Assembly: GCA_963706955.1 (NCBI GenBank)
Contig: CAVPOC010000003.1
Coordinates: 384,001-448,000 of the forward strand
Source: an uncultured Verrucomicrobiae bacterium
GTDB taxonomy: Bacteria; Verrucomicrobiota; Verrucomicrobiia; Chthoniobacterales; Terrimicrobiaceae
Direction: 5' to 3'
Length of the DNA stretch: 64,000 nucleotides
The notes under the pieces are model-generated. The model was given only the letters and a program-made list of their open reading frames with translations, was not told where the DNA came from and searched no databases. Shown here piece after piece: positions 25,909-60,171 of this stretch. The translations under genes were made by a program, and so were the position numbers. Position 1 is the first letter of the stretch. Each line of letters opens with the position of its first letter.

Positions 25909-26769
25909 TCACGCCAAGAGCAGATCGGTGCGATCAGCACGCCCGATTTGATCATGCCAAGCGAGAAGCGGCTCGATTTCCGGATGAATTTGCCCGGATC
26001 CGACGCGCTCCAGCAAGCGAACAACCGAGTAGTCCCGAATCCTCCTGAGGTATTCGCTCTCCCAAACCTCGAACCTTTTCTCGGTTTTGGCATCCAGAAA
26101 CGGCCAGCGTTCACTCGGCACGTGGTGGCCACAACGCCACGGCTTGGGCGTCAAGCGCGCGCGGAATGATTTTTGACTACGACACAGGCGAAGGTAGAGC
26201 GGATCGCTCCCAACGAAGTCGAGAGTTCGCGCCGCCTCGTCGGAGCAAGGGTCGATTTTCCGATGTGCCAGAATTACCCTTAACCCGCCCGCGGTCTCAT
26301 AAATAAAGGCGAGGCCGGCAGGTTCACCGCCGATCACCTCCACTACTTTTCGAAGGACGGAACTCGCGGACAGGTCTTTGCCGCGTCTTGTTTCTGCCGA
26401 TTTCCGGTTCCGAGTGAAGAAGCTCTGCAGAATCCCTGCGCGCGGCTCTTCCGCTTCAGTTGGGGGATGATCGACGTCGGCAATGAACATCCGCGCCGCA
26501 TTGAGGACGACGCACCCATAGCTGTTGCGCGTGATCGCTCCAGTTGGTTCCCCTGAGGTTGAACTCGCCATCACCTGCAAGACCGGCTCCCGCATCGGAC
26601 GATCGGGATAGCCGTAACGCTGGAGTGCCTCCCCTGACTGAAAGCGCTCTGCAAGGACGCGCGCCCGCTCCTGCGCACGTTCACAAGCGTCTTCGCTGCT
26701 TTGATCCGAGAAGCCCCAGCAAATAAATCCATCGTGCGCTCCGCGCTGCCAGAATTTTGGAAAATACAT
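25909..26769 (-). CDS. Hypothetical protein (possible AEP primase-like fold)
   Basis: 286-aa ORF with FIADVD, YETAGGLRV, DPLY, FRARLTPKP. Confidence 0.75.
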   Translation of the reverse strand: MYFPKFWQRGAHDGFICWGFSDQSSEDACERAQERARVLAERFQSGEALQRYGYPDRPMREPVLQVMASSTSGEPTGAITRNSYGCVVLNAARMFIADVDHPPTEAEEPRAGILQSFFTRNRKSAETRRGKDLSASSVLRKVVEVIGGEPAGLAFIYETAGGLRVILAHRKIDPCSDEAARTLDFVGSDPLYLRLCRSQKSFRARLTPKPWRCGHHVPSERWPFLDAKTEKRFEVWESEYLRRIRDYSVVRLLERVGSGQIHPEIEPLLAWHDQIGRADRTDLLLA

Positions 26770-26847
26770 GGGACCTGACTAGCGCATCGACTCGGTTCGT
26801 CCAAGCTGTCGAAATCCGCCGGCTGCCGTCGACGTGAAGCTTGAACG

Positions 26848-27096
26848 ATGATTTCCATCCATACGACCGACCCGGCGAATACACAGACGTTGGTGGCGAT
26901 CGCCGGGACTGGTTTTGGACAGGGGGCCAAGCTCGATCAGCAAAATACTATCTGGCAAGGCGAAAAGGCCTGGGCTCAGCTTTCGCAAAATCCCGGCACC
27001 GGCGAAGGAACGCTCTTCATCGGCGATTGCGAGTTAAGCCGCCAATTGGGCGAATACGAGCAGCGCGCCGCGGCGGAGGCGGCCGCGCAACTCTAA
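26848..27096 (+). CDS. Small hypothetical protein coupled to the RiPP precursor
   Basis: 82-aa ORF; its TAA overlaps the precursor ATG (TAATG). Confidence 0.55.
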   Translation: MISIHTTDPANTQTLVAIAGTGFGQGAKLDQQNTIWQGEKAWAQLSQNPGTGEGTLFIGDCELSRQLGEYEQRAAAEAAAQL

Positions 27097-27470
27097 TGGA
27101 CCAAAGCATGAAGAACACGTCGCTCACAAAGTCACTTCCCGCGTTGCTTGCACTCACCGGCGGAGCGATGCTCGCGACCAGCGAAAAGACCGAAGCCGCG
27201 AACACCACCGGCCAAAGCACATCACACCTCGACGCACTGGAAGTCCGTATCAAGAATGTCCAGGAAAAACTTGCCAACCAGCAGCCTGGCCTCTCCTTTG
27301 ACGAGCGGACCTCCGAGGACGGTCTCACTACATTCTGGTGGGGCAATTGGCGCAACGGCGGATGGGGTCCGGGAATGTGGCACAATTGGGGCAACGGAGG
27401 CTGGCGCAACTGGGGCAATGGCTGGGGCAACGGTGGCTGGCACAATTGGCACAATTGGGGTAACTGGTAA
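27096..27470 (+). CDS. GrrA/OscA-like rSAM-modified RiPP (triceptide) precursor
   Basis: Signal-like N-terminus, helical leader (LEVRIKNVQEKL), Gly/Trp/Asn core with 10 WxN motifs; start 27096 or 27108. Confidence 0.88.
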   Translation: MDQSMKNTSLTKSLPALLALTGGAMLATSEKTEAANTTGQSTSHLDALEVRIKNVQEKLANQQPGLSFDERTSEDGLTTFWWGNWRNGGWGPGMWHNWGNGGWRNWGNGWGNGGWHNWHNWGNW

Positions 27471-27516
27471 GCCCCTCTCGAACCTCCCTGAAGGTTGTCA
27501 GGAGAGCGCGAATCCG

Positions 27517-28680
27517 CTGGAAGCAAACGGCGGATTCTTCAAGTCGTCGGAAATCGAACCGTGGGCGACGCTCCTGGTCCTCCAAGCCTCACCGTTCTGC
27601 AACATCAACTGCGACTATTGTTACCTACCGAATCGGACATCGACGCGCCGCATGAGCATGCCGGTCCTCGCATCGGCGATCGAGAAAACCTACGCGTCCG
27701 ACCTGGTTCGGGGCGAATTGACGATCATCTGGCATGCTGGGGAACCATTGGCAGTGCCTATCGCGTGGTACGAAGAAGCACTCGCAACCATATCGCTGAC
27801 CGCTCCGAGTGGGGCGAACATCGTTCATTCCATTCAGTCCAACGGCACCTTGCTGAACCAAGCATGGTGCGACTTTATCCGGAGCCATGACATTCGTATG
27901 GGCCTCAGTATCGACGGTCCGGATTTTCTTCACGATGTGCACCGCAAGACCAGGCGGGGCGACGGCAGCCACCGCTTGGCCATGCGCGGTCTGCAACTGC
28001 TGAAGGACAACGACATCCCCTTCCACGTCATCGCCGTGATTACCGGCGAGGCCCTTGGTTACGCCCAGGAGATCTACGACTTCTTCGAGGCCGCGGGTGT
28101 CGAGCGTCTGGGCTTCAATATCGAAGAAGTTGAGGCGGAGCACGGCGTTTCCACTCTTGGCTCCGGACACGAAGAAAGTGTGCGCGAGTTCTATCAGACC
28201 ATCTTCGAAAATCAGAAAAGACGCCGAAGCATCACCATTCGTGAATTCGCGGCAGCAGAGCAAAAGATCCGCTCGGGCATCTCTCTGCGGGAATTTGATT
28301 TCCCGTGGTTCAATGAACAGGTGCGTCCATTTGGGATCATCAGTGTCGATTGGCAGGGAAATTTTTCCACGTACTCGCCGGAGCTTCTTGGGATGTCGCT
28401 CGAGCCCTACGGTGAGTTCTCTTTTGGGAACGTCCTCCGCGACCATTTCGCGGATGCGCTGGAAACTCCAAAGTTCCGCCAGGTGCTGGTGGACATTCAG
28501 ACCGGGATCAAACGATGCGCCGAGACTTGCCCATATTACGGATACTGCGGAGCAGGCGCCCCGGCGAATAAGTATTATGAGAATGGCTCGTTTGCGTCCA
28601 CACAGACCCTCTATTGCCGCTATTCGGTGCAAATGCCGCTCGATGTCGTCTTGAATGATATGGAGACGGCTTTGAGCTAA
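27517..28680 (+). CDS. GrrM/OscB-like cyclophane-forming radical SAM/SPASM maturase
   Basis: LLVLQASPFCNINCDYCYLP, IIWHAGEPL, SIDGP, FSTYSPELLG, CAETCPYYGYCGAGAPANKYYENGSF..TLYC. Start uncertain (CTG 27517, or ATG 27418 inside the precursor). Confidence 0.9.
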   Translation: MEANGGFFKSSEIEPWATLLVLQASPFCNINCDYCYLPNRTSTRRMSMPVLASAIEKTYASDLVRGELTIIWHAGEPLAVPIAWYEEALATISLTAPSGANIVHSIQSNGTLLNQAWCDFIRSHDIRMGLSIDGPDFLHDVHRKTRRGDGSHRLAMRGLQLLKDNDIPFHVIAVITGEALGYAQEIYDFFEAAGVERLGFNIEEVEAEHGVSTLGSGHEESVREFYQTIFENQKRRRSITIREFAAAEQKIRSGISLREFDFPWFNEQVRPFGIISVDWQGNFSTYSPELLGMSLEPYGEFSFGNVLRDHFADALETPKFRQVLVDIQTGIKRCAETCPYYGYCGAGAPANKYYENGSFASTQTLYCRYSVQMPLDVVLNDMETALS

Positions 28681-57149: not shown

Positions 57150-57207
57150 ATCCTCGACGAGACGCCGGCACCACACGCGAGACGCAGCGAGACGCGCATG
57201 CTCCCAG
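57150..57207 (-). repeat. GGGAG-led palindromic repeat family C (left copy)
   Basis: Reverse strand GGGAGCATGCGCGTCTCGC..GTGTGGTGCCGGCGTCTCG resembles 57882-57929. Confidence 0.6.
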
Positions 57208-57229
57208 AGCGCTTCAGTCGTAACACGCT

Positions 57230-57868
57230 TCAGCCCGCCGCAAGCTTCTGGAGATTTAGGGTGAAGGCAAGGCGAGTTCCAAAGAACTTGTGCTCTCGAA
57301 ATCCAGCGGCCTCCGCCAGTTGCGTCACTTTACGACGACTTTGAAAATGCGGATCAAAGATGAGTTCGGTCACCGAAAGTATGCCCCCCGGTTTCAGGGC
57401 ATCAAAAATTTCATGCAGCGCTGCCTGTTGATTCGGAATTTCGCCGAGCACTGCCACCAAGAGAGCCCGATCAAAGTGATTGCGCTCCAGTTTTCCCTCA
57501 CCCGCGCCTGCTTGAACAAAACGGATGTTCGGAAGATGAGCATTTTGGGCCTTTTCTTTGGCTCGCCTCAGCATTCCATCTTGGATATCGACGGCGACGA
57601 CCTCGCCTTTGGGAACCCGCTCTGCCAAAGGAACGGCAACTCTGCCGGGACCACAGCCGACGTCCAGCACCGCCATGTCATCTTCAAGCTCCAGATGCTC
57701 AATGATGGTCGCAGCGCGATTCGTGCGCGTAAACGGATTGTCGAGCTCGACGAACCAGCGCAACCAGACCGGACACGGTAGCGAACGACGACGCGATGCC
57801 AAACGCCAGGTGACCCCGACGAGCAAGAGCAGCCCGACGACTCCCAGAAGAATGCCCACTTTTTTCAT
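57230..57868 (-). CDS. Class I SAM-dependent methyltransferase with N-terminal TM anchor
   Basis: VLDVGCGPG, VAVDIQ, LKPGGIL; hydrophobic N-terminus. Confidence 0.9.
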   Translation of the reverse strand: MKKVGILLGVVGLLLLVGVTWRLASRRRSLPCPVWLRWFVELDNPFTRTNRAATIIEHLELEDDMAVLDVGCGPGRVAVPLAERVPKGEVVAVDIQDGMLRRAKEKAQNAHLPNIRFVQAGAGEGKLERNHFDRALLVAVLGEIPNQQAALHEIFDALKPGGILSVTELIFDPHFQSRRKVTQLAEAAGFREHKFFGTRLAFTLNLQKLAAG

Positions 57869-57881
57869 GACGCGTCGCTTT

Positions 57882-57929
57882 GGGGAGCATACCCGTCCCA
57901 GATGTGGTGTCCGGCGTCCTCGCCGGACT
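57882..57929 (+). repeat. GGGAG-led palindromic repeat family C (right copy)
   Basis: GGGGAGCATACCCGTCCCAGATGTGGTGTCCGGCGTCCTCGCCGGAC. Confidence 0.6.
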
Positions 57930-58012
57930 CTCTCGATCCCGACAACGTCGCCTTGGGCGATCGTCCGGTAATCGACGGACCAGGCGTGTATGCGAATTTG
58001 CGTGACATGCCA

Positions 58013-58393
58013 TCAGCTCCGCGCACTGTTTGGTTCCGATTCTTCCTTAACCTCCATTAGGTAGGAAGTGAGTTTCTTGATTTGGGCGCCTGCCATCTCG
58101 AACGCATCGCAAAAAACCGCATGCAAAACTCCGCCCTCTTTGCGGTGAGCGCGCACGGTTCCTTCCGCGACCACGACATTGTTCTCTTCGGTGAGACGCG
58201 TCACAACGATCGTCGGACTTCCGGTAAATGCCTCGTTCTCGATCTCTTTGTCGAAGGACTCCTTCCCCCGGATATGGAACATTCCCGGAATGACCCATTC
58301 CACATCGTCGGTGAGACACGAGAGCACCATGGCATGATCGGACCTGCGAAATCCCTCCAGATACCGATCTACAGTCCTCTTGTTCTCAGTCAC
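58013..58393 (-). CDS. NTF2/SnoaL-like protein
   Basis: ENKRTV..Y, TDDVEW.IPG, VVVAEG, FCD.FEM; GTG start inferred. Confidence 0.85.
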   Translation of the reverse strand: MTENKRTVDRYLEGFRRSDHAMVLSCLTDDVEWVIPGMFHIRGKESFDKEIENEAFTGSPTIVVTRLTEENNVVVAEGTVRAHRKEGGVLHAVFCDAFEMAGAQIKKLTSYLMEVKEESEPNSARS

Positions 58394-58442
58394 AAATTTT
58401 CTGACTTCGCGCGCCAATCTCTTCGGATTCGACGCCCGCGGC

Positions 58443-58652
58443 TCACTGCGACAGCGTTCTTCTCGCGCAATCGATAAGCCTTTCTCGTCCTGCGGAGGCC
58501 TGCATCGTTTCCTTACAGGAATTGACCGCCCTCTCAATGGCGGCGCGGGGCTTTCCCGGGAAGTCGCGACAAAGCTTATCCACCAGGTGTTCGATCTCCC
58601 AGTCCTGCCATGAGCTTTTCTCGCCGTAAGGGTTTGCCGGATCGTCTCGCAT
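58443..58652 (-). CDS. Small hypothetical protein
   Basis: 69-aa ORF co-oriented with neighbours (SWQDWEIEHL..FPGK.RAAIERAV). Confidence 0.55.
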   Translation of the reverse strand: MRDDPANPYGEKSSWQDWEIEHLVDKLCRDFPGKPRAAIERAVNSCKETMQASAGRERLIDCARRTLSQ

Positions 58653-58711
58653 GGCTAGCCCCAAGAAGCAACCATCTCCAACATCGGAAGTCGAGCGAGT
58701 GCGTTCAACCC

Positions 58712-59140
58712 TCAAGTTTCAACTTGCTTCGGCGACGGTAAGACTCCCATCTGCGCCATTAAACCGAGGGCGTCCATAATGATCCTCGTATCCTTGATCT
58801 TGCCATCAACGAAGCGGTCGATTGCAATCCCCCAGACGGATACCGAGCGTCCGGTTGCGGCAACGCCCAAGAATTCCCCTCGATGGGTGCCGCTCCAAAC
58901 AAATCGGCTGACGACCTTGTCACCTTCCTCGATCTGCTCTTCGACCGACCAATGCATGTCCGGAAATGCCACGAGAAAGCCGCGCAGGAGATCTTTCACA
59001 CCACTGAGTCCCGGGCCTTGTCCGGGAAATGGAGCCTGCTCGAGGACGTCTTCGTGAAAATACTTTCCGGTGGATTCGACATTGCCGCGATTGAGCACAT
59101 CATCGATGAACTCGCGAACCAAGTTGGCGTTGTTTTTCAT
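58712..59140 (-). CDS. SnoaL-like ester cyclase
   Basis: AFPD, EGDKVV.R..W.GTHRGEFLG..ATGR, D.LGLM.Q.G. Confidence 0.9.
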   Translation of the reverse strand: MKNNANLVREFIDDVLNRGNVESTGKYFHEDVLEQAPFPGQGPGLSGVKDLLRGFLVAFPDMHWSVEEQIEEGDKVVSRFVWSGTHRGEFLGVAATGRSVSVWGIAIDRFVDGKIKDTRIIMDALGLMAQMGVLPSPKQVET

Positions 59141-59226
59141 TTGAGGGGAAATCACTTTTCCTCCTACTGCTTGTCGGTTAGCCGGTCAAGCGGCGCTATG
59201 GTCATTGTCTGATCAAGAACTTTGAG

Positions 59227-60171
59227 CTAGGGCGACTTCGCCTGCTGATGTTCCGCAACCACCTCGTCAAGCACATATCGGGCCTTCGCCGCTTCCAAGG
59301 AACTGCTGCGTCTCTGTCCGGCAAGCGTAATCAAGGCTTTCCACAATGCCCAGCCACGACCTCGCGACCAAGTAGCTTTATCGAGCGAGAGCGCGGCCCG
59401 AAAGCCTTCGCGGCTTTCCCCCGAGAAGAGCGTCCACGCGATCGTTACGTCACAGGCAGGATCGCCCACCCCCGAAGACCCGAAATCGATGACAGCACTC
59501 AATCGGCCTCTCGTGACCAGCAAATTTCCTGCACTAACATCGCCATGCAGCCAGACGGGTCGGCCGCGCCATCTGGCCCCCAAGGCTTCATCCCACACTG
59601 AAGTCACGGTGTCTCGATCGATCGTCCCCGCCAGGTCTCTGATTGCTTGACGCGTCTGCTCGTCATAGATCTCCACCGACCCACCCCGATAGAAGTTATG
59701 CGATCCAGGCGCAGGTCCACCTGCCGGATCCATCCGTTGCAGAGCGAGAAGGAACTCTGCGAGCGTGATCGCAAATTGGCGCATGTCGGCGATGTGTTCG
59801 ATGGTCGCGTCCTGACCTTCGAGCCACCGATAGACTGACCAATGCCATGGATAGCCGTGGGCGGGAACTCCCATGGCGAGCGGAACAGGGATGGGCAGAG
59901 GCAAAAGCGGAGCGAGCCTGGGCAACCACCTTTGTTCCTTCTCTACTTGTGCCGAATAACGGGCGGCGCTGGGTAAACGGACGGTCATGCCCTCGCCGAG
60001 ATGAAAGGTCTTGTTGTCCCATCCGCTCAAGGCAACCGGTTTGATAGGCAGATACCCCCACTGGGGAAATTGGCTCGCGACCAATGTGCGCACAAGAGAA
60101 GCATCGATGTCTACGCGCGCGGTAGACGTCTCTCCCGACCCTAGTTTCGTCGGCTGGTCAGACCATTTCAT
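59227..60171 (-). CDS. Aminoglycoside phosphotransferase (APH)-family kinase
   Basis: GWDN.TF.LG, VRLP, KEQRWLP.LAP, WLHGD...GNLLV, VIDFG, GDPACD. Confidence 0.9.
   Translation of the reverse strand: MKWSDQPTKLGSGETSTARVDIDASLVRTLVASQFPQWGYLPIKPVALSGWDNKTFHLGEGMTVRLPSAARYSAQVEKEQRWLPRLAPLLPLPIPVPLAMGVPAHGYPWHWSVYRWLEGQDATIEHIADMRQFAITLAEFLLALQRMDPAGGPAPGSHNFYRGGSVEIYDEQTRQAIRDLAGTIDRDTVTSVWDEALGARWRGRPVWLHGDVSAGNLLVTRGRLSAVIDFGSSGVGDPACDVTIAWTLFSGESREGFRAALSLDKATWSRGRGWALWKALITLAGQRRSSSLEAAKARYVLDEVVAEHQQAKSP

Follow-up and report, generated by a model that had tools for sequence, protein, structure and literature searches.

A GrrA/GrrM triceptide locus of an uncultured Verrucomicrobiae bacterium and its conserved, unnamed partner gene

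We analysed a 64,000-nucleotide stretch of an uncultured Verrucomicrobiae bacterium from soil (Verrucomicrobiota, Chthoniobacterales, Terrimicrobiaceae; GenBank assembly GCA_963706955.1, contig CAVPOC010000003.1, forward-strand positions 384,001 to 448,000), hereafter the window, in which an original prediction made from the letters alone had proposed a triceptide locus, that is, a precursor peptide gene followed by a radical S-adenosylmethionine (SAM)/SPASM maturase. Family profile searches place this locus in the GrrA/GrrM (OscA/OscB) family, a known group of triceptide systems that forms a three-gene cassette in Chthoniobacterales relatives. The gene pair is a new, ordinary member of that family; what is new is a conserved, unnamed partner gene, which encodes a signal-peptide protein of about 180 amino acids (aa) directly upstream of the precursor and is referred to below as the companion. 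Triceptides are defined in the accessible part of PMC11499958, which reports about 3,900 putative pathways. The chemistry is ordinary for the family, and the cassette offers a concrete, testable lead on the role of the peptide. The features of the locus are collected in Table 1.

Table 1. Features of the GrrA/GrrM locus, in window positions.
Feature	Positions	Strand	Remarks
Deletion junction	26830–26853		about 366 bases absent: promoter-like TTGACA box and companion codons 1–98
Companion 3′ remnant, codons ~99–179 and stop	26851–27096	+	listed as an 82-aa open reading frame from ATG 26848
GrrA/OscA1-family precursor, 120 aa	27108–27470	+	TIGR04260, 45 bits (124-aa form); start conserved in relatives
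Predicted Sec-type signal peptide, residues 1–30	27108–27197	+	basic N-region, hydrophobic stretch, predicted cut after T-E-A30
Amphipathic leader helix, residues 38–58, LEVRIKNVQEKL	27219–27281	+	Arg47 invariant; predicted helix
Core, 45 residues, 10 W-x-N motifs	27333–27467	+	13 Trp, 14 Gly, 10 Asn, 3 His, 2 Arg, no Asp/Glu
GrrM/OscB-family radical SAM/SPASM cyclophane synthase (predicted), 387 aa	27517–28680	+	TIGR04261; likely CTG start

Both genes exceed their NCBIfam cut-offs, as expected of the GrrA/GrrM-type locus that had been claimed. The precursor, whose gene adjoins that of GrrM, scores 45 bits against the TIGR04260 cut-off of 31 over residues 7–123 of the 124-aa form, and 27 of 29 related precursors match the same model at E ≤ 0.01. 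The maturase scores 436.7–436.9 bits with TIGR04261 (cut-off 310), whereas rival models stay below their cut-offs, with AmcB at 305 bits (cut-off 425) and the sulfatase maturase model TIGR03942 at 157 bits (cut-off 349); the enzyme thus does not group with the anaerobic sulfatase maturases, the outcome that the original prediction had named as speaking against it. The motifs read in the enzyme (CNINCDYC, WHAGEPL and FSTYSPELLG) and its C-terminal Cys cluster, with four Cys, are present. Cys28/32/35 (CxxxCxxC) and Cys334/338/344/367 (SPASM) do not vary among 47 aligned homologues, which include two from cyanobacteria; by sequence, the closest protein of solved structure is the radical SAM domain of ChlB (9gm3, E = 8e-23). 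The nearest named loci belong to Terrimicrobiaceae and Chthoniobacterales, in agreement with the verrucomicrobial host that had been proposed.

The core contains, exactly as described, ten non-overlapping W-x-N motifs (five WGN, three WHN and two WRN), which supply the three-residue aromatic-X-X motifs by which a triceptide core is recognised. Every core Asn (10/10) lies two residues past a Trp, and none of 100,000 shuffled cores reached ten motifs (mean 2.8, maximum 8). Across the rest of the 4.16-Mb genome, read in six frames, one segment had more than three W-x-N per 50 residues and none had more than six. The 9-bp TGG-NNC-AAY repeats that had been noted hold for nine of the ten motifs, the last being TGG-GGT-AAC; TGG and AAY are forced by the genetic code. 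Over the 45 core codons there are no amino-acid changes relative to loci L019 and L020 against nine and seven silent differences, respectively, which indicates that purifying selection acts on the core. The signal and leader regions carry 6–14 amino-acid changes where the core has none, and in one X5 contig all of the core differences (9/9) are silent.

Upstream of the core, the precursor begins at ATG 27108 (MKNTSL), which is conserved in relatives; the start implied by the original prediction, ATG 27096, shares bases with the upstream stop and is missing in all three aligned relatives. The N-terminus, rightly called signal-like, has a sequence pattern resembling that of a Sec signal peptide. 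Among 44 related precursors a hydrophobic stretch was found in 43, a basic N-region in 41 and a twin-arginine motif in none, by a heuristic applied without a shuffled control, and Ala30 is conserved in at least 90% of 29 precursors. These 44 are the precursors, out of 79 loci, that start with Met, lack a MAILRS-type leader and contain at least six W-x-N/D motifs; one of them, L025, was read from the wrong start. Arg47 is invariant across the 29 precursors. The predicted structure of the whole precursor, made for the L019 orthologue, has low confidence (predicted local distance difference test score, pLDDT, 51) and was used for the leader helix alone, which is its most confident part (pLDDT about 70). 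We regard this helix, residues 38–58, as a putative recognition element for the maturase.

The precursor gene ends 46 bases ahead of the likely maturase start. After the precursor stop, the maturase frame holds no ATG, GTG or TTG. CTG 27517, 27 codons ahead of the first Cys, is the likely start because it aligns with start codons in the four same-genus relatives that have an alignable maturase N-terminus, namely ATG (G010 and G011), TTG (G004) and CTG (G017). Such a CTG start could reduce the level of the maturase relative to the precursor. Forty bases of the interval from the precursor stop to 27515 are missing in one X5 contig, so this stretch is dispensable. A precursor–enzyme fusion, read as a 510-aa open reading frame from TTG 27148, was rejected since the frame is closed in most relatives: a few close relatives keep it open through the precursor (488–526 aa), and most are about 376–490 aa. 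The Trp, Gly, Asn and His codons of the precursor create no stop in the maturase frame.

The linkage of the companion to this family is close. Across 301 genomes of the order, 35 of which have GrrM above the TIGR04261 cut-off, all 24 strong companion matches (at least 190 bits) lie 375–814 bases upstream of GrrM on the same strand, and just one of the 32 weak-match places located is in a GrrM-bearing genome. Its position immediately upstream of the precursor is kept while flanking genes vary, and no exporter, peptidase or modifying enzyme recurs among 53 flanking genes. In a quick maturase tree, the companion-bearing loci all fall inside one 37-row group (support 91). The N-terminus of the companion is signal-like and its structure model is confident (pLDDT 88), and neither Pfam (five proteins) nor NCBIfam (28 members) returned a family. 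Its Atlas matches are unnamed clusters, 44 distant relatives show just scattered TPR, PEGA, SH3 and DUF domains, and the family in its wider sense is large, with 2,371 clusters at E ≤ 0.001. The predicted fold appears closest to double-wing and immunity-type proteins, specifically the double-wing domain of Escherichia coli YdcD (8wj5) and an RhsI1-type immunity chain (6xtd_B), at 10–14% identity, which is a resemblance of fold and not family membership; Foldseek and sequence comparison of the companion with these two entries gave no significant match. A literature search found no paper on the double-wing domain.

The assembly itself holds the 3′ half of the companion alone. The original prediction was correct in that no GrrP, peptidase or exporter is adjacent, but it overlooked the conserved third gene because this half alone survives. 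By tblastn the remnant is 89–93% identical to residues 99–179 of the full-length L019 and L020 genes, and 79 of 80 residues are identical to the full-length protein P0201 (43 cluster members). Homology to L019 ends at 26806 and restarts at 26854, so that about 420 bases of L019 correspond to 47 here. Run X1 has 388 letters where the window has 22, between 26829 and 26852, from which the missing part is put at about 366 bases. Loose ends at 26829–26852 in X6 and X15 match the intact form, which is found in contigs from near-identical strains of three studies, and no contig bridging the junction of the window was found among the contigs listed. These comparisons indicate that the species normally has three genes, and that what this assembly shows is an allele with a deletion or else an error of assembly.

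Upstream of the companion, a conserved box ending in TTGACA was recognised by alignment and pattern in the G017 and G010 loci and is not in the window’s own locus; a scan of the window region and L019 for the sigma-70 consensus promoter gave no site. Lacking its promoter-like box and one half of the companion, the cassette in this assembly is likely to be weakened or silent, or else mis-assembled. RNA run X15 yielded two short, low-depth contigs that span intergenic DNA and are possibly DNA, and these neither support nor oppose expression. A second, longer deletion allele (window 26551 to 26855) occurs in X1 and X5, from two studies, with a right end almost equal to that of the window junction; it removes the 5′ part of a divergent 286-aa gene and makes an in-frame chimeric 108-aa open reading frame that is publicly present (P0353). 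Decayed cassettes are also seen in the same-genus genomes G011 (L013/L036) and G003 (L015), as internal deletions in companion, precursor and maturase, or as a maturase fragment with a stop.

The locus had been put forward as a candidate for a new system, which the family evidence does not bear out. Orthologous precursors in Terrimicrobium sacchariphilum and Spartobacteria LR76 already bear the family name, many metagenomic copies are already called ‘rSAM-associated Gly-rich repeat protein’, and the signal-like region falls within the TIGR04260 model. Ten motifs are likewise typical of the clade; the idea that they are exceptional was rejected, as the 44 related precursors have a median of 8.5 (range 6–12) and 14 of them have at least ten. 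Ten rings in 45 residues, several of them back-to-back, would nonetheless be a natural substrate for probing the stapling density of these enzymes. A literature search for Verrucomicrobia together with cyclophane, radical SAM and precursor peptide found no paper, the primary OscB papers and their supplements being outside its reach, and taxon and family terms gave no match in the supplements of PMC11499958 and PMC10288494. No characterised member from the phylum Verrucomicrobiota was found in the literature search, and the OscB-paper supplements might list verrucomicrobial clusters.

Compared with OscA/OscB, which is the same family as GrrA/GrrM (TIGR04260 and TIGR04261, with GrrP as TIGR04262), the locus has a precursor of like layout, in which a signal-like region and a leader helix precede an aromatic-x-Asn core that contains Gly, and its C-terminal Cys set is common to the cyanobacterial homologues L087 and L089. 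It differs in that its core is Trp-dense (13 of 45 residues) with middle His or Arg, and in that the verrucomicrobial cassette has the companion, an unrelated protein, upstream instead of GrrP. GrrP, a solute-binding protein, is the usual third member of the cyanobacterial GRRM cassette. The best TIGR04262 match in this genome reaches 39.7 bits on another contig (cut-off 190). No GrrP exceeded the cut-off in G004, G024 or G150, and two GrrM-bearing cyanobacterial metagenome-assembled genomes used as controls were also below it; at E ≤ 1e-40 none was found in the 301 genomes, where the controls were silent too, so that absence is not shown.

In T. sacchariphilum, which we take to be the cultured type strain of a named species, the precursor (GAT34319.1) is 62% identical to that of the window, and a companion homologue has the adjacent accession number (GAT34318.1, TSACC_22743); these are annotations only, and the companion is called a hypothetical protein. 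Companion and maturase are linked in G024, a genome of the same genus as T. sacchariphilum. As a named species, T. sacchariphilum is the obvious test organism, and a small cassette of three genes, one of them for a dedicated and likely secreted partner, opens a direct way to study the role and exit of the product. No account of either for a Gly-rich-repeat product was found in the literature searched, which did not cover the primary OscB papers.

GrrM forms bonds between Trp C7 and Asn C-beta, with a loss of 2 Da per ring. The accessible part of PMC11002830 likewise gives the OscB chemistry as C7(Trp) to C-beta(Asn/Asp). We consider it reasonably probable that the cassette makes a peptide with up to ten predicted Trp–Asn cross-links, that this peptide is likely exported by Sec, and that it is bound in the periplasm by a double-wing-like companion, itself likely secreted. 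In the cytoplasm, GrrM would join the Trp and Asn of as many as ten W-x-N motifs (up to −20 Da), holding the precursor there by its conserved leader helix until modification of the core has taken place. Export by Sec and cleavage by signal peptidase would then take off residues 1–30, a route that would explain why no exporter or peptidase is encoded. The companion may bind the exported product in the periplasm, filling the role thought to belong to the extracytoplasmic GrrP in cyanobacterial cassettes, and the product may remain at the envelope as a rigid scaffold displaying His and Arg side chains. A comparable route is that of the bufferins, for which the accessible part of PMC12452194 describes a Sec signal peptide on the precursor of a peptide made on the ribosome and modified after its translation (RiPP), cytoplasmic modification and no dedicated transporter; Sec export of the modified RiPP was shown there, a feature that the authors call highly unusual. 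Bufferins, which bind copper, differ, in the same source, in having an MNIO enzyme in place of a radical SAM enzyme, Cys-derived heterocycles and a cytoplasmic DUF2063 partner, and we claim no homology.

What such a complex might do is more speculative. Of the 274 motifs counted across 33 companion loci, 120 have a middle His, versus none of 69 in seven acidobacterial loci without a companion, and this excess makes metal binding the first role to test. Weighing against it, five of the 33 companion-linked cores have no His at all. That a ten-ring, His-displaying, Sec-exported peptide works in the periplasm in complex with a dedicated protein of double-wing fold, for example in metal binding or envelope protection, is a tentative and somewhat doubtful proposal; if true, it would provide the first assigned function and the first binding partner for Gly-rich-repeat triceptides.

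The main rival explanation, which we judge unlikely, is that the stapled core is released as a cationic, Trp-rich antibacterial peptide and that the companion is a periplasmic immunity protein. The core is invariant in three species-level genomes of the genus, which would be unlike an arms-race peptide; no outer-membrane exporter or leader peptidase recurs in the flanks; and L043 (G061), from the same maturase clade, has the precursor and no companion. A different alternative concerns export itself: the hydrophobic stretch might be a recognition leader only, with no Sec export, and the companion a co-transcribed envelope protein that does not touch the peptide. The long, polar c-region of the precursor (TSEKTEA) would fit this explanation, as would the suggestion, in the part of PMC12452194 available to us, that the bufferin signal peptide forms part of the enzyme recognition sequence. 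Distant companion homologues are also solitary in housekeeping contexts (11 loci read), and the fold needs no peptide partner. Set against these points are the tripartite signal pattern and Ala30, kept across precursors just 36–50% identical, the existence of a separate conserved leader helix for recognition, and the upstream place that the companion keeps despite changing flanking genes, and we consider this account distinctly improbable. It is also conceivable that the enzyme lacks three-residue cyclophane chemistry here, being of another or a sulfatase-maturase-like type, and that the repeats form a low-complexity tail that stays unmodified. The literature searched yielded no experiment on any verrucomicrobial member, which leaves room for this explanation, but the profile scores (437 bits with TIGR04261 versus 157 with the sulfatase maturase model), the strict W-x-N register and the closest solved structure by sequence, ChlB, named as a triceptide synthase in the accessible part of PMC11499958, make it very hard to credit. 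Cross-linking by GrrM followed by Sec export to a periplasmic companion is the reading that we prefer.

Several neighbouring and related systems were observed in addition. The divergent 286-aa gene next to the cassette (window 25909–26769, minus strand) has no Pfam or NCBIfam family, and its position is kept in three close relatives. The same genome has a second W-x-N system (L018:7168-10059; G000:C5, about 57,170–60,060), which comprises a twin-arginine-type precursor with six W-[ILV]-N motifs, a Cys-rich protein of 280 aa, and an enzyme of the radical SAM/SPASM type that is below all NCBIfam cut-offs and is split into two open reading frames here. The 280-aa protein has matches in 29 of the 301 genomes of the order, with a similar precursor at all 25 loci fetched. 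Eight Verrucomicrobiales loci (L061, L062, L065, L066, L073, L077, L093 and L096) belong to a separate maturase clade (29 rows, support 100) with a downstream MAILRS precursor that has Cys-containing repeats (WRNC, WHNC) and no signal-like region. In Pyrinomonadaceae (L041, L063, L064, L070 and L072), acidobacterial precursor–maturase pairs have WGN/WNN/WRN cores with 9–11 motifs, and in all five loci a TIR-domain protein and then a very large protein follow, instead of a companion. Finally, G174 has a second full cassette (L134:670-3456), downstream of which lie genes that, in this single case, presumably resemble an Mn/Fe/Zn ABC uptake system.
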